Notes: generated by a model not told the origin, from the sequence alone. Numbered from the stretch's first letter, positions 9,228 to 24,581 are shown. The stretch: 64,000 nucleotides of DNA from Escherichia coli (GCF_003334405.1 NZ_QOWM01000001.1), one strand, 5' to 3'. Numbers and translations are program-made.

Positions 9228-11417
9228 ATGTTTGTGGAGCATAACCTGATAAAAAATATCAAGATATTCACACTAGCGTTTACGCTCACCGTGGTACTTA
9301 TTCAGCTATCCCGTTTTATTTCGCCACTTGCCATTATCCATTCCAGTTATATCTTTCTGGCGTGGATGCCACTGTGCGTAATGCTGTCAATCTTGTTTAT
9401 CTTTGGCTGGCGCGGTGTCGTTCCCGTTTTATGCGGGATGTTTTGCACCAATCTGTGGAACTTTCATCTCTCTTTTTTACAGACTGCGGTCATGCTCGGT
9501 AGCCAGACGTTTGTCGTGTTGTGTGCCTGCGCAATATTACGCTGGCAGCTGGGGACGCGTTGGCGTTATGGATTGACCAGCCGATATGTCTGGCAACGTC
9601 TGTTCTGGCTTGGTTTGGTGACGCCGATCGGCATCAAATGCAGCATGTATCTTGTGGGGAGCTTCTTTGATTTCCCGCTAAAGATATCCACCTTTTTCGG
9701 CGATGCGGATGCCATTTTCACGGTCGTTGATTTGCTAAGCCTTTTCACCGCTGTGCTGATTTACAACATGCTTTTCTACTATCTCACTCGCATGATTGTA
9801 AGTCCCCACTTTGCGCAGATATTGTGGCGCAGGGATATCGCTCCGTCGTTGGGCAAAGAGAAACGCGCATTTACCTTAAGCTGGCTGGCAGCGTTAAGCG
9901 TGCTGCTACTTCTGTTGTGCACACCTTATGAAAACGACTTTATTGCCGGTTACCTGGTACCCGTTTTCTTCATCATCTTTACCCTCGGGGTCGGTAAGCT
10001 TCGCTATCCGTTTTTAAATCTCACCTGGGCTGTTTCAACGCTTTGCCTTCTGAATTACAACCAGAACTTTTTGCAAGGGGTGGAAACCGAATATTCGCTG
10101 GCATTTATTCTTGCGGTGCTGATTTCCTTTAGCGTTTGCCTGCTCTATATGGTGCGCATTTATCATCGCAGTGAATGGCTTAATCGCCGCTGGCATTTGC
10201 AGGCGCTGACAGATCCGTTAACGCTCCTACCCAACTTTCGTGCGTTGGAACAAGCGCCGGAGCAAGAGGCGGGCAAGAGTTTTTGCTGCCTGCGCATTGA
10301 TAATCTTGAGTTTATGAGTCGTCATTACGGCTTAATGATGCGCGTTCACTGTATCCGCTCAATTTGCCGTACGCTGCTGCCGTTGATGCAGGAAAACGAA
10401 AAGTTGTATCAATTGCCGGGTAGTGAACTGCTGTTAGTGCTGAGCGGGCCGGAAACGGAAGGGCGACTCCAGCATATGGTTAACATCCTGAATAGTCGGC
10501 AAATTCACTGGAACAATACCGGGCTGGATATGGGCTATGGTGCTGCCTGGGGGCGTTTTGATGGAAATCAGGAAACCCTGCAACCCTTGTTGGGGCAGTT
10601 AAGCTGGCTGGCGGAGCAATCCTGCGCACATCATCATGTGCTGGCGCTGGATAGCAGAGAGGAGATGGTTTCCGGGCAGACCACTAAACAGGTGCTATTG
10701 CTGAATACCATTCGCACGGCGTTAGATCAGGGTGATTTGCTGCTCTACGCCCAGCCAATTCGCAACAAAGAGGGTGAAGGTTATGATGAGATCCTCGCGC
10801 GACTGAAATATGACGGCGGCATTATGACCCCGGATAAGTTTCTGCCCCTTATTGCTCAGTTTAACCTTAGCGCGCGTTTTGATTTGCAAGTGCTGGAATC
10901 CTTGTTGAAGTGGCTGGCAACACACCCTTGCGACAAAAAAGGACCGCGCTTTTCAGTCAATTTAATGCCGCTCACGCTGCTGCAAAAGAATATTGCCGGG
11001 CGGATTATTCGTCTGTTTAAGCGTTATCACATCTCCCCGCAGGCGGTCATTCTTGAGATCACCGAGGAGCAGGCGTTTTCTAACGCAGAAAGCAGCATGT
11101 ACAACATCGAGCAGCTGCATAAGTTTGGTTTCCGGATTGCGATTGATGACTTTGGCACCGGATATGCCAACTACGAACGGTTAAAGCGTTTGCAGGCTGA
11201 TATCATCAAAATTGATGGCGTCTTTGTGAAAGATATTGTCACGAACACGCTGGATGCGATGATTGTGAGATCAATTACCGATCTGGCGAAAGCGAAGTCA
11301 TTGAGTGTGGTCGCGGAGTTTGTCGAGACGCAACAGCAGCAGGCGCTATTGCATAAGCTCGGGGTGCAATATCTGCAAGGGTATTTGATTGGTCGCCCGC
11401 AGCCATTAGCTGATTAA
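9228..11417 (+). CDS. pdeA: c-di-GMP phosphodiesterase, membrane N-terminal domain plus C-terminal EAL domain
   Basis: ORF track starts at 9111; in-frame ATG at 9228 (MFVEHNL...) gives 729 aa. Hydrophobic N-terminal third; EAL-type signatures EITEEQ and DDFGTGYANY. Confidence 0.88.
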   Translation: MFVEHNLIKNIKIFTLAFTLTVVLIQLSRFISPLAIIHSSYIFLAWMPLCVMLSILFIFGWRGVVPVLCGMFCTNLWNFHLSFLQTAVMLGSQTFVVLCACAILRWQLGTRWRYGLTSRYVWQRLFWLGLVTPIGIKCSMYLVGSFFDFPLKISTFFGDADAIFTVVDLLSLFTAVLIYNMLFYYLTRMIVSPHFAQILWRRDIAPSLGKEKRAFTLSWLAALSVLLLLLCTPYENDFIAGYLVPVFFIIFTLGVGKLRYPFLNLTWAVSTLCLLNYNQNFLQGVETEYSLAFILAVLISFSVCLLYMVRIYHRSEWLNRRWHLQALTDPLTLLPNFRALEQAPEQEAGKSFCCLRIDNLEFMSRHYGLMMRVHCIRSICRTLLPLMQENEKLYQLPGSELLLVLSGPETEGRLQHMVNILNSRQIHWNNTGLDMGYGAAWGRFDGNQETLQPLLGQLSWLAEQSCAHHHVLALDSREEMVSGQTTKQVLLLNTIRTALDQGDLLLYAQPIRNKEGEGYDEILARLKYDGGIMTPDKFLPLIAQFNLSARFDLQVLESLLKWLATHPCDKKGPRFSVNLMPLTLLQKNIAGRIIRLFKRYHISPQAVILEITEEQAFSNAESSMYNIEQLHKFGFRIAIDDFGTGYANYERLKRLQADIIKIDGVFVKDIVTNTLDAMIVRSITDLAKAKSLSVVAEFVETQQQQALLHKLGVQYLQGYLIGRPQPLAD

Positions 11418-16284: not shown

Positions 16285-17250
16285 ATGACAAAGTATGCAT
16301 TAGTCGGTGATGTGGGCGGCACCAACGCACGTCTTGCTCTGTGTGATATTGCCAGTGGTGAAATCTCGCAGGCTAAGACCTATTCAGGGCTTGATTACCC
16401 CAGCCTCGAAGCGGTCATTCGCGTTTATCTTGAAGAACATAAGGTCGAGGTGAAAGACGGCTGTATTGCCATCGCTTGCCCAATTACCGGTGACTGGGTG
16501 GCGATGACCAACCATACCTGGGCGTTCTCAATTGCCGAAATGAAAAAGAATCTCGGTTTTAGCCATCTGGAAATTATTAACGATTTTACCGCTGTATCGA
16601 TGGCGATCCCGATGCTGAAAAAAGAGCATCTGATTCAGTTTGGTGGCGCAGAACCGGTCGAAGGTAAGCCTATTGCGGTTTACGGTGCCGGAACGGGGCT
16701 TGGGGTTGCGCATCTGGTCCATGTCGATAAGCGTTGGGTAAGCTTGCCAGGCGAAGGCGGTCACGTTGATTTTGCGCCGAATAGTGAAGAAGAGGCCATT
16801 ATCCTCGAAATATTGCGTGCGGAAATTGGTCATGTTTCGGCGGAGCGCGTGCTTTCTGGCCCTGGGCTGGTGAATTTGTATCGCGCAATTGTGAAAGCTG
16901 ACAACCGCCTGCCAGAAAATCTCAAGCCAAAAGATATTACCGAACGCGCGCTGGCTGACAGCTGCACCGATTGCCGCCGCGCATTGTCGCTGTTTTGCGT
17001 CATTATGGGCCGTTTTGGCGGCAATCTGGCGCTCAATCTCGGGACATTTGGCGGCGTGTTTATTGCGGGCGGTATCGTGCCGCGCTTCCTTGAGTTCTTC
17101 AAAGCCTCCGGTTTCCGTGCCGCATTTGAAGATAAAGGGCGCTTTAAAGAATATGTCCATGATATTCCGGTGTATCTCATCGTCCATGACAATCCGGGCC
17201 TTCTCGGTTCCGGTGCACATTTACGCCAGACCTTAGGTCACATTCTGTAA
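16285..17250 (+). CDS. glk: Glucokinase
   Basis: 321 aa; N-terminal ATP-binding motif [15 protein letters not shown]. Confidence 0.97.
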
Positions 17251-17468
17251 ATCCTTCCTTTTATATCGGGAGGTAACTCTCCCGATAATCTTTTAAATCA
17301 TACAGTTTATTCAATTTTTCTTTGTGTCCCCTCACAAGGTCGACCTGCGTCACACTTCCGTACAGCGGGATTAATTCTCCAGTAAATGCATTATTTGTCT
17401 GGTAACGGCGATTTGTTTTGCACGTTCATAATTTCACTCGTCAACTATCACTGAACGAGGAATTAACG

Positions 17469-17795
17469 ATGAGTAAGAAACTGATTGCCTTATGTGCCTG
17501 CCCGATGGGCCTGGCTCACACCTTTATGGCCGCTCAGGCGCTGGAAGAAGCGGCGGTAGAAGCCGGTTATGAAGTGAAAATTGAAACCCAGGGCGCGGAC
17601 GGTATCCAGAATCGCCTGACGGCGCAGGATATCGCCGAAGCGACCATCATCATCCACTCCGTGGCAGTTACCCCGGAAGATAACGAACGTTTCGAATCAC
17701 GCGACGTTTATGAAATCACTTTGCAGGACGCAATTAAAAACGCTGCGGGCATCATCAAAGAAATCGAAGAGATGATTGCCTCTGAACAACAGTAA
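17469..17795 (+). CDS. fryB: PTS fructose-like EIIB component
   Basis: ORF track from 17418; ATG at 17469 (MSKKLIALCACPMG...) gives 108 aa; Cys in the CACPMG phosphorylation-site context. Confidence 0.88.
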   Translation: MSKKLIALCACPMGLAHTFMAAQALEEAAVEAGYEVKIETQGADGIQNRLTAQDIAEATIIIHSVAVTPEDNERFESRDVYEITLQDAIKNAAGIIKEIEEMIASEQQ

Positions 17796-17816
17796 TATTC
17801 GACAGGGATAATTGTT

Positions 17817-19064
17817 ATGGCCATTAAAAAACGCAGTGCAACCGTTGTGCCTGGCGCATCCGGTGCGGCAGCGGCAGTTAAGAATCCGCAGGCCTCTAAA
17901 ACCAGCTTCTGGGGTGAACTCCCGCAGCATGTGATGTCAGGGATTTCACGCATGGTGCCGACCTTAATTATGGGCGGTGTGATCCTCGCTTTCAGCCAGC
18001 TGATTGCTTATAGCTGGCTTAAAATTCCTGCTGAGATCGGCATCATGGATGCTCTTAATAGCGGGAAATTCTCCGGTTTCGACCTCTCCTTACTTAAATT
18101 TGCCTGGCTGTCGCAGTCCTTCGGCGGCGTGTTGTTTGGTTTTGCCATTCCGATGTTTGCTGCTTTTGTGGCGAACTCTATCGGTGGCAAACTGGCGTTC
18201 CCGGCTGGTTTTATCGGCGGGTTGATGTCTACCCAGCCGACGCAACTGCTGAACTTCGATCCCAGCACTATGCAATGGGCGACCTCTTCGCCGGTGCCGT
18301 CCACCTTCATTGGTGCGCTGATTATTTCTATCGTTGCCGGTTACCTTGTGAAGTGGATGAACCAGAAAATCCAGTTACCGGATTTCCTGTTAGCGTTCAA
18401 AACCACATTTTTGCTCCCGATTCTTTCCGCCATTTTTGTCATGCTGGCGATGTACTACGTCATCACCCCCTTTGGTGGCTGGATCAACGGCGGTATCCGT
18501 ACTGTGCTGACTGCCGCAGGTGAGAAGGGCGCGCTGATGTACGCAATGGGGATCGCCGCGGCGACAGCAATCGACCTTGGTGGCCCGATCAACAAAGCCG
18601 CAGGTTTTGTTGCCTTCAGCTTTACCACTGACCACGTATTACCGGTCACCGCTCGTTCTATCGCTATCGTTATTCCGCCGATTGGTCTGGGGCTGGCGAC
18701 CATTATCGACCGTCGTTTAACCGGCAAACGCCTGTTCAACGCTCAACTTTATCCGCAGGGTAAGACCGCCATGTTCCTGGCGTTTATGGGGATCAGTGAG
18801 GGTGCGATTCCGTTTGCGCTGGAAAGCCCCATCACCGCCATTCCGTCGTATATGGTCGGCGCTATTGTCGGCTCAACCGCCGCTGTCTGGCTGGGCGCAG
18901 TGCAATGGTTCCCGGAGTCCGCTATCTGGGCATGGCCGCTGGTCACTAACCTGGGCGTCTATATGGCGGGGATCGCGCTGGGGGCAGTCATAACTGCGCT
19001 GATGGTGGTGTTCCTGCGTCTGATGATGTTCCGTAAAGGCAAATTGTTAATCGATAGCCTGTAA
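17817..19064 (+). CDS. fryC: PTS fructose-like EIIC permease
   Basis: 415 aa polytopic membrane protein downstream of fryB. Confidence 0.9.
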
Positions 19065-19078
19065 GAAGGAAAATCCAG

Positions 19079-20164
19079 ATGACATTACTCGCTTCGCTGC
19101 GCGACTGGCTTAAGGCGCAACAACTGGATGCAGTGCTTCTCTCCTCACGGCAGAACAAACAGCCGCATCTGGGGATCTCCACCGGATCAGGTTATGTGGT
19201 GATTAGCCGTGAAAGTGCGCACATTCTGGTGGATTCGCGCTATTACGTTGAGGTGGAAGCCCGTGCGCAAGGCTACCAGCTGCATTTGCTTGACGCGACG
19301 AACACGCTTACCACTATCGTCAATCAAATCATTGCCGATGAACAGTTGCAAACGCTCGGTTTTGAGGGCCAGCAGGTGAGTTGGGAAACCGCGCACCGCT
19401 GGCAGTCTGAACTCAATGCGAAACTGGTTAGCGCCACGCCGGATGTGCTGCGGCAAATCAAAACGCCAGAGGAGGTGGAGAAAATCCGCCTCGCCTGTGG
19501 GATTGCTGATCGCGGTGCAGAGCATATTCGCCGCTTTATTCAGGCGGGGATGAGCGAGCGCGAGATAGCCGCTGAACTGGAGTGGTTTATGCGCCAGCAG
19601 GGCGCAGAAAAAGCCTCTTTTGACACCATTGTCGCCAGTGGCTGGCGTGGGGCGCTGCCGCACGGCAAAGCCAGCGACAAGATTGTTGCAGCGGGCGAGT
19701 TTGTCACTCTCGATTTCGGTGCGCTGTATCAGGGCTACTGCTCTGATATGACGCGCACCTTGCTGGTGAATGGCGAAGGGGTGAGCGCCGAATCTCACCC
19801 GCTGTTTAACGTCTATCAAATTGTCCTGCAGGCACAGCTCGCAGCAATCTCCGCGATTCGCCCCGGCGTGCGCTGCCAGCAGGTTGACGATGCCGCGCGC
19901 CGGGTCATTACAGAAGCAGGTTATGGCGACTATTTCGGTCATAACACCGGTCACGCTATCGGCATTGAAGTTCATGAAGATCCGCGTTTTTCACCGCGGG
20001 ACACCACGACGCTACAGCCAGGCATGTTACTGACCGTGGAGCCGGGGATTTATTTGCCAGGGCAAGGGGGCGTGCGCATCGAAGATGTTGTGCTGGTTAC
20101 CCCGCAAGGCGCAGAAGTGCTCTACGCCATGCCGAAAACAGTGTTGCTCACGGGAGAGGCATAA
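19079..20164 (+). CDS. ypdF: Xaa-Pro aminopeptidase (M24 family)
   Basis: 361 aa; M24 metal-ligand region ([13 protein letters not shown]); stop overlaps the ypdE start (TAATG). Confidence 0.88.
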
Positions 20165-21201
20165 TGGATTTATCGCTATTAAAAGCGTTGAGCGAGGCAG
20201 ATGCGATCGCCTCCTCGGAACAGGAAGTGCGGCAGATCCTGCTGGAAGAAGCGGATCGCCTGCAAAAAGAAGTGCGATTTGATGGTCTGGGATCGGTGCT
20301 GATCCGCCTGAATGAATCGACAGGTCCGAAGGTGATGATCTGTGCGCATATGGACGAAGTGGGATTTATGGTGCGCAGCATCTCCCGCGAAGGGGCGATT
20401 GATGTGCTGCCGGTTGGCAACGTACGCATGGCTGCCCGCCAGCTGCAGCCGGTGCGCATCACCACCCGTGAAGAGTGCAAAATTCCAGGCCTGCTTGACG
20501 GCGACCGGCAGGGGAATGACGTCAGCGCCATGCGCGTGGACATTGGTGCGCGCTCCTATGACGAAGTGATGCAGGCGGGAATTCGTCCCGGCGATCGCGT
20601 CACGTTTGATACCACTTTTCAGGTTCTCCCTCACCAGCGAGTGATGGGGAAAGCCTTTGATGACCGCCTCGGTTGCTATCTGCTGGTGACGTTACTGCGC
20701 GAACTGCACGACGCCGAACTACCTGCGGAAGTGTGGCTGGTGGCAAGTTCCAGCGAAGAGGTGGGATTACGCGGCGGGCAAACTGCCACCCGCGCGGTGT
20801 CGCCGGACGTCGCCATTGTGCTTGATACCGCCTGCTGGGCGAAAAACTTTGATTATGGCGCGGCTAACCATCGCCAGATTGGTAACGGGCCGATGCTGGT
20901 GTTAAGCGACAAGTCGCTGATTGCGCCGCCAAAACTTACCGCCTGGGTCGAAACCGTGGCGGCAGAAATTGGCGTGCCGTTGCAGGCAGATATGTTCAGC
21001 AACGGCGGCACGGACGGCGGGGCGGTGCACTTAACCGGCACCGGCGTGCCCACAGTGGTGATGGGGCCAGCAACCCGCCATGGACATTGCGCCGCATCGA
21101 TTGCCGATTGCCGCGACATTTTGCAGATGCAGCAACTTTTATCTGCCCTTATTCAACGTCTTACGCGTGAGACGGTTGTTCAACTGACGGATTTCAGATG
21201 A
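20164..21201 (+). CDS. ypdE: M42-family aminopeptidase
   Basis: 345 aa; embedded in the fry operon. Confidence 0.88.
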
Positions 21202-21225
21202 TCTCCTGATTAACCCGGAGCGGTT

Positions 21226-23721
21226 ATGTTAACGATTCAATTTCTCTGTCCTTTGCCTAACGGTCTACATGCTCGTCCGGCGTGGGAACTTAAAGAACAG
21301 TGCAGCCAGTGGCAAAGCGAAATCACTTTTATTAACCATCGCCAGAACGCAAAGGCAGATGCGAAAAGCTCGCTGGCGCTGATTGGCACCGGCACCCTAT
21401 TTAATGACAGTTGCAGCCTGAACATTAGCGGCAGCGATGAAGAGCAGGCGCGGCGCGTGCTGGAAGAGTACATCCAGGTGCGCTTTATCGACAGCGACAG
21501 CGTTCAGCCTACGCAGGCAGAACTGACGGCGCATCCGCTGCCGCGTTCATTAAGCCGCCTTAACCCGGATTTACTGTACGGCAATGTGCTGGCAAGCGGC
21601 GTCGGCGTGGGTACGCTGACCCTGTTACAAAGCGACAGCCTCGACAGTTATCGGGCAATCCCCGCCAGTGCGCAAGATTCCACCCGGCTGGAGCACAGCC
21701 TGGCAACGCTTGCCGAGCAACTGAACCAGCAATTGCGTGAGCGTGACGGCGAAAGCAAAACTATCCTCAGCGCCCATTTGTCGCTGATTCAGGATGATGA
21801 ATTTGCAGGCAATATCCGTCGCCTGATGACAGAACAGCATCAGGGGCTGGGGGCGGCGATCATCAGCAATATGGAGCAGGTTTGCGCCAAACTTTCTGCC
21901 TCTGCCAGCGATTATCTGCGCGAACGTGTTAGCGACATTCGCGATATCAGCGAACAGTTGCTGCATATCACCTGGCCGGAACTGAAGCCGCGCAACAAGC
22001 TGGTGCTTGAAAAACCGACCATTCTGGTGGCTGAAGATTTAACCCCAAGCCAGTTTTTGAGCCTTGATTTGAAAAATCTTGCGGGCATGATTCTGGAGAA
22101 AACCGGGCGCACCTCGCATACACTGATTCTGGCCCGTGCCTCGGCGATCCCGGTACTGAGTGGCTTGCCGCTGGATGCGATTGCCCGTTATGCCGGGCAA
22201 CCTGCAGTGCTTGACGCCCAGTGCGGCGTGCTGGCGATTAACCCGAATGACGCGGTGAGCGGTTATTATCAGGTCGCGCAGACGCTGGCGGATAAACGCC
22301 AAAAACAACAGGCGCAGGCTGCCGCGCAGCTGGCCTATTCCCGTGATAACAAGCGTATTGATATTGCGGCGAATATCGGCACCGCTCTGGAAGCGCCAGG
22401 CGCGTTTGCCAACGGCGCGGAAGGTGTCGGGCTGTTCCGTACCGAAATGCTCTATATGGATCGCGACAGCGCGCCGGACGAGCAGGAGCAATTTGAAGCC
22501 TACCAGCAGGTGCTACTGGCGGCGGGCGACAAGCCGATTATCTTCCGCACGATGGACATCGGCGGCGATAAAAGCATTCCTTATCTGAATATTCCCCAGG
22601 AAGAGAACCCGTTCCTCGGCTATCGCGCGGTACGTATTTACCCGGAATTTGCTGGCCTGTTCCGCACTCAACTGCGGGCCATTTTGCGCGCCGCCAGTTT
22701 CGGCAACGCCCAGTTGATGATCCCGATGGTTCACAGCCTCGATCAGATCTTATGGGTGAAAGGCGAGATCCAAAAAGCGATCGTTGAGCTTAAGCGCGAT
22801 GGCCTGCGTCATGCAGAGACGATTACGCTTGGGATCATGGTGGAAGTTCCGTCGGTGTGCTACATCATCGACCACTTCTGCGATGAGGTCGATTTCTTCA
22901 GTATCGGCTCCAACGATATGACCCAGTATCTGTATGCGGTCGATCGTAATAACCCGCGCGTATCGCCGCTATATAACCCGATTACGCCATCGTTCCTGCG
23001 CATGTTGCAGCAAATAGTTACCACTGCGCATCAGCGGGGCAAATGGGTAGGCATTTGCGGTGAACTGGGCGGTGAAAGCCGTTATCTGCCGCTACTGCTT
23101 GGGCTGGGCCTGGATGAGCTGAGTATGAGTAGCCCGCGTATTCCGGCGGTGAAAAGCCAGCTTCGTCAACTGGATAGCGAGGCGTGTCGGGAACTGGCGC
23201 GTCAGGCATGTGAATGCCGCAGTGCGCAGGAAATTGAAGCGTTACTCACCGCCTTTACGCCGGAAGAAGACGTTCGCCCACTGCTGGCGCTGGAGAATAT
23301 CTTTGTTGATCAGGATTTTAGCAATAAAGAGCAGGCGATCCAGTTCCTGTGCGGCAACCTCGGCGTTAACGGGCGCACTGAACATCCGTTTGAGCTGGAA
23401 GAAGATGTCTGGCAGCGGGAAGAGATTGTTACCACCGGCGTTGGTTTTGGCGTAGCGATCCCGCACACCAAATCTCAGTGGATCCGTCATTCCAGTATCA
23501 GCATTGCCCGGCTGGCGAAACCGATTGGCTGGCAGTCAGAAATGGGCGAAGTCGAACTGGTGATCATGCTGACGCTGGGTGCTAACGAAGGGATGAATCA
23601 TGTGAAAGTCTTCTCGCAGCTGGCGCGTAAACTGGTGAATAAAAACTTCCGCCAGTCGTTGTTTGCCGCGCAAGATGCACAAAGTATCCTGACGCTGCTG
23701 GAAACAGAATTAACCTTCTGA
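21226..23721 (+). CDS. fryA: PTS multiphosphoryl-transfer protein (HPr-like, Enzyme I and EIIA-like domains)
   Basis: 831 aa; PEP-utilising Enzyme I-like central region. Confidence 0.9.
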   Translation: MLTIQFLCPLPNGLHARPAWELKEQCSQWQSEITFINHRQNAKADAKSSLALIGTGTLFNDSCSLNISGSDEEQARRVLEEYIQVRFIDSDSVQPTQAELTAHPLPRSLSRLNPDLLYGNVLASGVGVGTLTLLQSDSLDSYRAIPASAQDSTRLEHSLATLAEQLNQQLRERDGESKTILSAHLSLIQDDEFAGNIRRLMTEQHQGLGAAIISNMEQVCAKLSASASDYLRERVSDIRDISEQLLHITWPELKPRNKLVLEKPTILVAEDLTPSQFLSLDLKNLAGMILEKTGRTSHTLILARASAIPVLSGLPLDAIARYAGQPAVLDAQCGVLAINPNDAVSGYYQVAQTLADKRQKQQAQAAAQLAYSRDNKRIDIAANIGTALEAPGAFANGAEGVGLFRTEMLYMDRDSAPDEQEQFEAYQQVLLAAGDKPIIFRTMDIGGDKSIPYLNIPQEENPFLGYRAVRIYPEFAGLFRTQLRAILRAASFGNAQLMIPMVHSLDQILWVKGEIQKAIVELKRDGLRHAETITLGIMVEVPSVCYIIDHFCDEVDFFSIGSNDMTQYLYAVDRNNPRVSPLYNPITPSFLRMLQQIVTTAHQRGKWVGICGELGGESRYLPLLLGLGLDELSMSSPRIPAVKSQLRQLDSEACRELARQACECRSAQEIEALLTAFTPEEDVRPLLALENIFVDQDFSNKEQAIQFLCGNLGVNGRTEHPFELEEDVWQREEIVTTGVGFGVAIPHTKSQWIRHSSISIARLAKPIGWQSEMGEVELVIMLTLGANEGMNHVKVFSQLARKLVNKNFRQSLFAAQDAQSILTLLETELTF

Positions 23722-23723
23722 CG

Positions 23724-24581
23724 TTAGCCCTGAAAACGGGCGCTGTACTCTCCCGGCGTCAGACCAAACTGACGCCGGAAAACGCGACAAAAATAGTCGC
23801 TATCCGGAAAACCGCAACGCTGTGCCACTTCATGAATTGACAGATGATATTTCTGCAAAATCATCCTCGCCTTCGCCATTCGCACCCAACGCACATACTC
23901 GATAAAACGCATCGTTCCATGCTGAGCAAACAGTTTTGACAGATGATTGGGCGTGATATTAAAAAACTGCGCCACGCTCTCGCGGGTGAGCGGCTGGGCA
24001 TAATTATCCTGAACCCAGTTACAAATGCTGTGATAGAGAAAATCGCCGCGCGGCTGCGAATTGCCCGGCGGCATATTCACCACGCTACGGCAAAGATGCA
24101 GCAAACTTAACACCAGCGGCTGAATGATATTTTGCTCCAGCGGCGAACGGCTAAGATGGGTGAGGGCGGTAAGCATCGCTTCACCTTCACCGCGTTGCAG
24201 GCTGGGAAGCTGGATCTGGCGAGCAGGATGCAACAACGACGTGGTGCGGCTATCGTAAAACGATAACCCAAGCCAGGTCGGAGCGAACACCAGGCTTAAC
24301 AGCATCACCGGTTTGTTGTTGACCGGTAAATTAGCCGCGCGCGCCGGAATAAACAGCATTTCTCCTTCCACCAAACGTTGCTGCTTTGCTTCCAGCAGAT
24401 TGCCGTATTCGCCGCGCAGCACGATATCCAGACGGGGAAAATCAATACATAAACTGCCCACCGGCAACGAGGCAGGCTGGCTGGCAAACCAGACGCGCCC
24501 CAGTAGTTGCGGGTTAAGCACCAGGCCGCTGAACAGATCGGCGAAAAATTGTTGATCGGCGGGCAAGCCTGGTGCTTTCAT
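23724..24581 (-). CDS. ypdC: AraC-family transcriptional regulator
   Basis: 285 aa; C-terminal AraC HTH. Confidence 0.85.
   Translation of the reverse strand: MKAPGLPADQQFFADLFSGLVLNPQLLGRVWFASQPASLPVGSLCIDFPRLDIVLRGEYGNLLEAKQQRLVEGEMLFIPARAANLPVNNKPVMLLSLVFAPTWLGLSFYDSRTTSLLHPARQIQLPSLQRGEGEAMLTALTHLSRSPLEQNIIQPLVLSLLHLCRSVVNMPPGNSQPRGDFLYHSICNWVQDNYAQPLTRESVAQFFNITPNHLSKLFAQHGTMRFIEYVRWVRMAKARMILQKYHLSIHEVAQRCGFPDSDYFCRVFRRQFGLTPGEYSARFQG

Follow-up and report, generated by a model that had tools for sequence, protein, structure and literature searches.

The fry operon of Escherichia coli as a possible version of a multi-phylum phosphotransferase–aminopeptidase module for sugar-peptide conjugates

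Escherichia coli K-12 holds several phosphotransferase systems (PTS) without a known substrate, fry among them, and all three of its M42 aminopeptidase paralogues are encoded in PTS operons, namely fry, frv and sgc. In the 64,000-nucleotide stretch of E. coli chromosomal DNA analysed here (GCF_003334405.1, NZ_QOWM01000001.1; hereafter the window), the fry operon occupies positions 17,469 to 23,721 and combines the PTS genes fryB, fryC and fryA with two aminopeptidase genes, ypdF (family M24) and ypdE (family M42). Like fry, frvABXR and sgcXBCQAER are orphan PTS operons with an M42 paralogue, FrvX and SgcX being 35% and 32% identical to YpdE, respectively; frv further resembles the type A clusters described below in encoding a PRD regulator along with a fructose-family EIIA/EIIBC. 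Unlike fry, both lack an M24 partner, a fused EI-HPr-EIIA protein and a PatB-family enzyme, and sgc has a PTS of the galactitol type. Since neither of them has a known substrate, they offer no mechanism that could be borrowed for fry. A first-pass annotation of the window had likewise called the fry substrate unidentified, which agrees with the literature on fryA, fryB, fryC, ypdE, ypdF and frvX, where no paper naming a substrate was found, and with PMC5364489, where this substrate is described as unknown.

Among pathways described elsewhere, alf-2 of L. casei is a proven catabolic pathway for a glyco-amino acid, fucosyl-N-acetylglucosaminyl-asparagine (fucosyl-GlcNAc-Asn) (PMC6960285). Similar to the fry-type clusters, alf-2 brings together a transporter, a peptidase (PepV) and a pyridoxal phosphate (PLP) enzyme for the amino acid that is set free (AsdA), and it also has an enzyme breaking the bond between sugar and amino acid (PMC6960285). 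It differs from them in its major facilitator superfamily permease, glycosidase and glycosylasparaginase, and in that its peptidase belongs to family M20 rather than to M42 or M24. Set against a pathway of this type, the fry operon possesses the transporter and the peptidases, while a candidate bond-cleaving enzyme, PatB, is found in the non-enteric versions only. The MngAB system for 2-O-alpha-mannosyl-D-glycerate is comparable to fry in that its PTS belongs to the fructose family and takes up a sugar joined to a small acidic group that is not itself a sugar; nevertheless, it has no peptidases, and the bond is cleaved by a GH38 mannosidase. FryB and FryC match the MngA model with 85 and 102 bits, respectively, far below its cutoff.

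Established enteric pathways for sugar–amino acid conjugates, frlABCDR of E. coli and the gfr PTS of Salmonella, resemble what is proposed here for fry, and gfr also uses a PTS; unlike fry, they depend on SIS-domain deglycases and have no aminopeptidases, and the gfr PTS is of the mannose family. In the thioalcohol pathway of Staphylococcus hominis (PMC7385124, PMC11742315) a peptidase trims the substrate and a PatB C-S lyase frees the conjugated group, as may happen in the type A and type B clusters, but the substrate is a Cys-Gly S-conjugate without a sugar, and it enters through a peptide transporter and not a PTS. The malY cluster of L. sakei LT-13 (PMC5845896) has the type B architecture, comprising a PRD protein, an aminopeptidase, Lac-family IIA, IIB and IIC, an RDD protein, a second aminopeptidase and MalY. 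It was drawn without interpretation, and is the sole member with a biochemically characterised PLP enzyme: its MalY is PLP-dependent and acts as a racemase on a broad range of amino acids and as a cystathionine beta-lyase (PMC5845896). This cluster differs from E. coli fry in having a lactose/cellobiose-family PTS, MalY and an RDD protein.

Comparison of the fry operon with loci of other bacteria leads us to propose, tentatively and at a likelihood a little short of even, that fry is one version of a multi-phylum catabolic module for a small sugar-peptide or sugar-amino-acid conjugate. The locus and its odd mixture of genes are already annotated and present in the literature, and the structures of both peptidases have been solved; what is new is the comparative evidence for co-inheritance of M42, M24 and PTS genes as a module. 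Relatives of YpdE were collected in an exhaustive profile search and their contigs inspected, one genome per species was then scanned with the clade alignment, and seed proteins were mapped onto all loci; the comparative sample includes about 25 related clusters. Enterobacterial orthologues share at least 75% identity with YpdE, followed by a sharp gap to the nearest other relatives at 42–45%. At loci with enough flanking sequence, every M42 gene whose product is at least about 38–40% identical to the YpdE clade lies beside a PTS and an M24 gene. Such loci were found in Enterobacterales, Lachnospiraceae, Clostridium, Erysipelotrichales, lactobacilli and Olsenella. At 60 loci with a more distant M42 (archaea and many Bacillota), by comparison, an M24 neighbour was never observed and a PTS was present at only four.

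The clusters follow different gene orders. Type A, found in Lachnospiraceae, Hungatella and Enterocloster, consists of a PRD regulator, EIIA_2, fructose-family IIB and IIC, M24, M42 and a PLP enzyme of the PatB family. Type B (Clostridium cavendishii, Faecalibacillus, Terrisporobacter, Erysipelotrichales, Olsenella and Companilactobacillus) consists of a PRD regulator, M42, lactose/cellobiose-family IIA, IIB and IIC, M24 and the PatB-family PLP enzyme. Type C, present in Escherichia, Citrobacter, Pseudocitrobacter, Superficieibacter and Hafnia, is the fry operon itself, with IIB, IIC, M24, M42 and FryA, and with ypdC convergent. The gene order is shared between type A and E. coli, and the identities are 71–76% for FryB, 57–64% for FryC, 43–48% for YpdF and 42–43% for YpdE. 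On the YpdE-specific NCBIfam model, the type A and type B M42 proteins reach 388–488 bits, versus 154–199 bits on other M42 models.

At least three phyla thus share the trio of YpdE-type M42, M24 and PTS, which comes in two gene orders and with PTS of two unrelated families. Its recurrence in this form means that chance embedding is no explanation, and a functional coupling of the peptidases to the PTS, as suggested in the first-pass annotation, is well supported by these genomic data. The opposite assumption, that FryABC takes up a simple hexose or ketose while YpdE and YpdF are housekeeping aminopeptidases that are merely co-transcribed, seems quite improbable. YpdF is said to have Xaa-Pro aminopeptidase and limited Met-aminopeptidase activity and YpdE to be a broad exo-aminopeptidase, both reportedly cleaving ordinary unmodified peptides in vitro; E. 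coli also has other orphan 'fructose-like' PTS systems, and the operon includes no sugar-processing enzyme, all of which would fit an uncoupled operon. However, such an operon would not account for the spread of the trio across Proteobacteria, Firmicutes and Actinobacteria, nor for the generic M42 loci without M24 and usually without PTS; moreover, the YpdE clade has invariant residues of its own, including R71, R237 and S196-S197, the latter adjoining the catalytic Glu-Glu.

Several of the M42 relatives have other arrangements. Three tandem M42 genes with no PTS or M24 nearby occur at L039, L049, L062, L063, L066, L076, L077, L079, L083, L087 and L090 (many Bacillota and one archaeon). Five YpdE relatives of 700–790 amino acids (P0138, P0146, P0154, P0161 and P0176) contain two complete M42 domains in tandem, some of them with low-complexity linkers. 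Proteins of this size were considered as possible M24-M42 ('Rosetta-stone') fusions, and this was rejected, since they are tandem M42-M42 proteins and provide no evidence of a YpdF-YpdE fusion.

The search for enzymes that could process the sugar was negative: no glycoside hydrolase, sugar-phosphate isomerase, SIS-type deglycase or kinase was identified in the approximately 25 related clusters, and no open reading frame (ORF) for a fructosamine deglycase is present in the E. coli fry operon. The only bond-breaking enzymes across these clusters are the two aminopeptidases and, outside Enterobacterales, the PatB-family PLP lyase. A sugar–amino acid or glycopeptide conjugate, the substrate class put forward in the first-pass annotation, is the most economical reading of this gene content, and a glyco-amino acid or small glycopeptide would be the simplest fit. 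Two features are required of the substrate: a group open to phosphorylation by a PTS, and a peptide or amino-acid portion whose N-terminus is free.

Amadori products, which the first-pass annotation had named as candidates, are disfavoured by these data. In such a fructosamine pathway FryBC would import fructosyl-amino acids or glycated peptides and the peptidases would trim them, as could be expected from the fructose-family PTS and from the existence of enteric Amadori systems. Nevertheless, all characterised fructosamine pathways need a SIS-type deglycase, together with a kinase if no PTS is used, and neither the E. coli operon nor any of the related clusters encodes a SIS-type deglycase or a fructosamine kinase. 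Peptides glycated at the alpha-amine, such as N-alpha-fructosyl peptides, lack the free alpha-amine needed by metallo-aminopeptidases and PLP enzymes, and in half of the related clusters the PTS is of the lactose/cellobiose family. A pathway for Amadori products is therefore considered very unlikely.

The PLP enzyme of the clusters passes the model for PatB-family C-S lyases (359–369 bits at a cutoff of 340) and is 43% (type A, full length) or 29% (type B) identical to E. coli MalY. This enzyme could cleave off an O- or S-linked phospho-sugar through beta-elimination; alternatively, it could do no more than process amino acids that have already been released. Taking the first of these options further, the module could be a cross-phylum pathway for O- or S-linked glycopeptides or glyco-amino acids, for example, Pro/Ser/Thr-rich fragments of mucin type or of mannoproteins, in which the PTS would phosphorylate the sugar, the aminopeptidases would strip the peptide, and a PLP beta-lyase instead of a glycosidase would free the sugar phosphate, yielding pyruvate or 2-oxobutyrate and ammonia. 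We regard this specific version as unlikely; if true, it would represent a new class of PTS substrates and a new catabolic way to break a glycosidic link.

In another reading, the substrate could be a cell-wall conjugate with D-amino acids (a muropeptide or a D-alanylated fragment of teichoic acid), from which the peptidases would free alanine and other residues and a MalY-type enzyme would racemise D-alanine. Racemase activity in a cluster of the same type, the alanine dehydrogenase gene ending the type B cluster of one lineage (L003), and the established ability of Lac-family PTS to carry beta-linked GlcNAc disaccharides are consistent with such a substrate. On the other hand, the lactyl group of N-acetylmuramic acid blocks the stem peptide at its N-terminal end, the gamma-D-Glu bond is no substrate for these aminopeptidase families, and no MurQ-type etherase or amidase was found in any cluster, while alanine dehydrogenase is limited to that single lineage. 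Altogether, a cell-wall conjugate looks improbable. Next to this type B cluster, a sugar cluster (L003:307-7862) comprises an RpiR/SIS regulator, a PfkB kinase, a fructose-type IIBCA, a HAD hydrolase, a SIS protein, a second PfkB kinase and a fructose-bisphosphate aldolase; it is not conserved at other loci.

Several observations concern PatB-like enzymes and accessory genes elsewhere. In E. coli K-12, MalY is paired with the orphan PTS permease MalX (malX-malY, L094:3356-6130), and it could supply the lyase that the fry operon lacks, or else represent the same logic in a second, split form. The neighbouring gene alaC was considered as a counterpart of the 'aminotransferase' of the foreign clusters and rejected, because the enzyme in question is a PatB-family member with only 20–27% identity to AlaC; in Hafnia and Superficieibacter, alaC is unlinked to fry. 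In Salinicoccus, Jeotgalicoccus and Macrococcoides (L051, L056, L070 and L072, at about 8400–11050), a PatB-like gene lies immediately 5' of a generic M42 gene without a PTS, which is a further recurring pairing of a peptidase with a C-S lyase. A gene for an RDD-family membrane protein (PF06271) is a recurrent accessory of the Lac-type peptidase-PTS clusters (L013:15354-16034, L027:10756-11361, L028 at about 15527, L029 at about 10888 and L075:5667-6308) and is also present in the L. sakei LT-13 cluster.

A fourth, independent cluster type was found in Lachnospiraceae, Clostridium and Erysipelotrichaceae (L075:3724-13223; also L068, L078, L033 and L084). It comprises genes for a PRD regulator, an RDD protein, Lac-family IIA, IIB and IIC, a GrdB-like protein, two M42 peptidases, an Asparaginase_2-family hydrolase and a PepV-like M20 dipeptidase. 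The glycosylasparaginases belong to the Asparaginase_2 family, and by analogy this cluster looks like a PTS-using pathway for N-linked glyco-amino acids of the GlcNAc-Asn type. Since it mirrors the enzyme set of alf-2, the association of PTS with M42 recurs together with enzymes known to dismantle sugar–amino acid conjugates.

Under the proposed reading of fry as a module for sugar-peptide conjugates, phosphoenolpyruvate would phosphorylate the EI domain of FryA, and the phosphoryl group would pass to the HPr and EIIA domains of FryA and then to Cys-11 of FryB. The conjugate would be imported by FryC, its sugar moiety being phosphorylated on the way in. In the cytoplasm, YpdF could take off N-terminal residues ahead of proline-like positions and YpdE could trim the rest; the products would be free amino acids together with a phospho-sugar that is either released or still bound to a single amino acid. 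In Firmicutes and Actinobacteria, the PatB/MalY-family enzyme of the cluster might handle this last amino acid, possibly through beta-elimination of an O- or S-linked phospho-sugar. The enteric version has no PatB gene, and YpdC, an AraC-family protein, and the fused FryA would stand in place of the PRD-type regulator and the separate EIIA. The substrate class and the order of these steps, as well as the roles assigned to YpdC and PatB, are what we infer.

A number of points weigh against this reading. Its chief weakness is that the E. coli operon contains no enzyme able to break a sugar–amino acid bond. To our knowledge, there is no demonstrated case of a PTS importing a sugar that bears a peptide, and we know of no inducing condition or substrate growth phenotype for the fry operon. 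YpdE and YpdF reportedly hydrolyse unmodified peptides in vitro, the PatB-family enzymes may act solely in catabolism or racemisation of amino acids after their release, with no glycosidic cleavage, and the sample of about 25 clusters reflects few independent evolutionary events.

The family assignments made for the fry genes in the first-pass annotation were upheld by scans with family models. YpdF scores 819 bits on NF007310 (cutoff 393) and is identical to PDB 5CNX, and its M24 metal ligands (D212, D223, H292, E321 and E335) are invariant in eight cluster M24 proteins. YpdE scores 681 bits on NF007421 (cutoff 412), and PDB 1YLO is its Shigella orthologue; the His/Asp/Glu-Glu/Asp/His ligand columns of M42 are invariant in the YpdE clade and the outgroup. 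A passage of PMC3511314 cites YpdE as a characterised aminopeptidase, with reference to Zheng et al. 2005 (J Bacteriol 187:3671). FryB passes the fructose IIB model TIGR00829 (92.2 bits, cutoff 76.85) and has an intact phospho-Cys motif, LCACPMGLAHT (CxPxGxAHT type). FryC reaches 157.0 bits on the fructose IIC model TIGR01427, whose cutoff is 157.55, and stays far under the cutoffs of the equivalog models for FruA, FrwC, FrvB and MngA; by these scores, FryC is probably a divergent fructose-family EIIC. The Pfam domains of FryA are PTS-HPr (6–84), three PEP-utiliser domains (EI N-terminal, mobile and PEP-binding; 119–650) and EIIA_2 (687–826), and its active-site His motifs GLHARP, TSHT and AIPH are intact in NGLHARPA, GRTSHTLILARA and GVAIPH.

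Of 5426 complete E. coli genomes, 5425 carry the locus, at 95–100% identity to a 7.5-kb query around the operon. In E. coli as well as in three genomes of Citrobacter or Pseudocitrobacter, each of the five ORFs is intact, and in this comparison the ratio of nonsynonymous to synonymous substitution rates (dN/dS) was 0.01–0.15 across the five fry genes versus 0.03–0.04 for glk, the ratios being approximate because dS is near saturation. All five genes are under strong purifying selection. Phenotypes have been described for two of them: a ypdE deletion in the uropathogenic E. coli strain UTI89 is outcompeted in the bladder of mice (competitive index 0.30; PMC8767336), and an in-frame fryA deletion results in better fitness in prolonged culture in lysogeny broth (PMC5364489).

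The fryA phenotype, together with the self-contained EI-HPr-EIIA composition of FryA and the position of the operon next to ypdABC in E. coli, might suggest that FryA and FryB form a PTS-Ntr-like sensory phosphorelay with control over peptide catabolism or over the adjacent YpdAB system, which senses pyruvate. Nevertheless, a full-length EIIC is always present, and fryC (dN/dS about 0.03) is the best-conserved gene of the operon after fryB; the Firmicutes versions have ordinary separate EIIA, EIIB and EIIC and the PRD regulators typical of catabolic operons, and the linkage to ypdAB is missing in Hafnia and Superficieibacter. A purely regulatory PTS is thus scarcely probable.

The ORF list of the window confirmed five co-oriented ORFs at exactly the outer limits first annotated, and RefSeq names them fryB, fryC, ypdF, ypdE and ptsP/fryA (Table 1). 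On an identical stretch, RefSeq gives the order glk, fryB, fryC, ypdF, ypdE and ptsP (= fryA), then ypdC, ypdB and ypdA on the opposite strand, and alaC. Overlapping stop and start codons, described in the first-pass annotation as a feature of the operon, are limited to the ypdF/ypdE junction (TAATG, a 1-nucleotide overlap at 20164, in the sequence cataATGg); the other junctions are gaps of 21 (fryB/fryC), 14 (fryC/ypdF) and 24 nucleotides (ypdE/fryA), and a Shine-Dalgarno-like sequence is present at each. The glk stop codon at 17250 is directly followed by a terminator-like hairpin that sets the operon apart from glk. The genes fryBC-ypdFE-fryA form a compact operon, given as a single transcription unit in PMC2731931. 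The GC content of the fry module (18000–23500) is 55–58% versus 49–52% in glk and ypdAB, a mild compositional sign of foreign origin that is consistent with the high similarity to the Lachnospiraceae clusters and is not decisive for horizontal transfer.

Table 1. Features of the fry locus, with positions counted from the first nucleotide of the window.
Feature	Position	Strand	Description
Terminator-like hairpin of glk	17264..17287	+	10-bp stem then T-rich tail; upstream boundary of the fry unit
Putative fryB promoter/operator region, conserved	17350..17432	+	Invariant blocks in an alignment of six Enterobacterales
fryB	17469..17795	+	PTS EIIB, fructose family; phospho-Cys motif CACPMGLAHT
fryC	17817..19064	+	PTS EIIC permease, fructose family, divergent
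ypdF	19079..20164	+	M24B Xaa-Pro-type aminopeptidase; NF007310, PDB 5CNX, invariant ligands
ypdE	20164..21201	+	M42 (TET-type) aminopeptidase; NF007421, PDB 1YLO, invariant ligands
fryA	21226..23721	+	Fused HPr-EI-EIIA(Fru) multiphosphoryl transfer protein; Pfam domain order, active-site His motifs
ypdC	23724..24581	-	AraC-family regulator, convergent with fryA; candidate fry operon regulator

The regulator gene ypdC had been described in the first-pass annotation as divergent, which is incorrect: it is located on the minus strand downstream of fryA, tail to tail, with 2 nucleotides between the stop codons. The E. coli gene comes third in ypdA-ypdB-ypdC, where the gaps are of 12–14 nucleotides. 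However, ypdC adjoins fryA at all eight Enterobacterales loci, two of them without ypdAB. In Hafnia and Superficieibacter, fry and ypdC are kept, while ypdA, ypdB, glk and alaC are absent within 10 kb, and in Hafnia the next gene is sbmC. Because fry and ypdC are retained together without ypdAB in these genera, ypdC belongs to the fry module, and its inclusion in the ypdABC unit of E. coli looks secondary. This synteny supports the proposal of the first-pass annotation that YpdC is the likely regulator of the fry operon. The facing stop codons of fryA and ypdC (23719–23726) leave no space for an intergenic terminator; transcription of each unit must therefore stop within the coding sequence of the other, and the two may interfere with each other or give overlapping antisense transcripts.

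Six Enterobacterales share a conserved stretch of about 90 nucleotides 5' of fryB; among them are Hafnia and Superficieibacter, which have different flanking genes. The invariant blocks are TCACAyTT (17350–57), CCAGTAAATGCA (17379–90), TTGTCyGGTAAC (17395–406) and a CATAAT -10 box (17427–32). No good or recognisable match to a -35 box was found in this conserved region, and since the -10 box lacks such a partner, the putative fryB promoter is probably activator-dependent. A CRP site was considered and rejected: just a half-site, TCACA, is conserved, and TGTG-N6-CACA (17323–17336) is mis-spaced and not conserved. A scan for consensus promoters and terminators performed at chance level and missed the conserved -10 box, and an Rfam search gave no match. 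In four pig enterotoxigenic E. coli genomes, an IS1A element lies between the glk terminator and the conserved region (L093:541-1238, corresponding to about 17290–17330 in the glk-fryB spacer of the window; 777 extra bases), and this insertion could silence or activate the fry operon.

For E. coli, with its several orphan PTS systems, the conserved module narrows the search for the fry substrate, since it always combines a PTS of either family with M24 and YpdE-type M42 peptidases, sometimes with PatB and never with a glycosidase or deglycase, and it provides concrete organisms and enzymes as candidates for such work. If the PTS of this module does import glycopeptides, the known range of PTS substrates would widen. 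Most carriers of the module are gut bacteria and the ypdE mutant is attenuated in the mouse bladder; therefore, the fry substrate may be derived from the host or its diet and may be relevant to colonisation.

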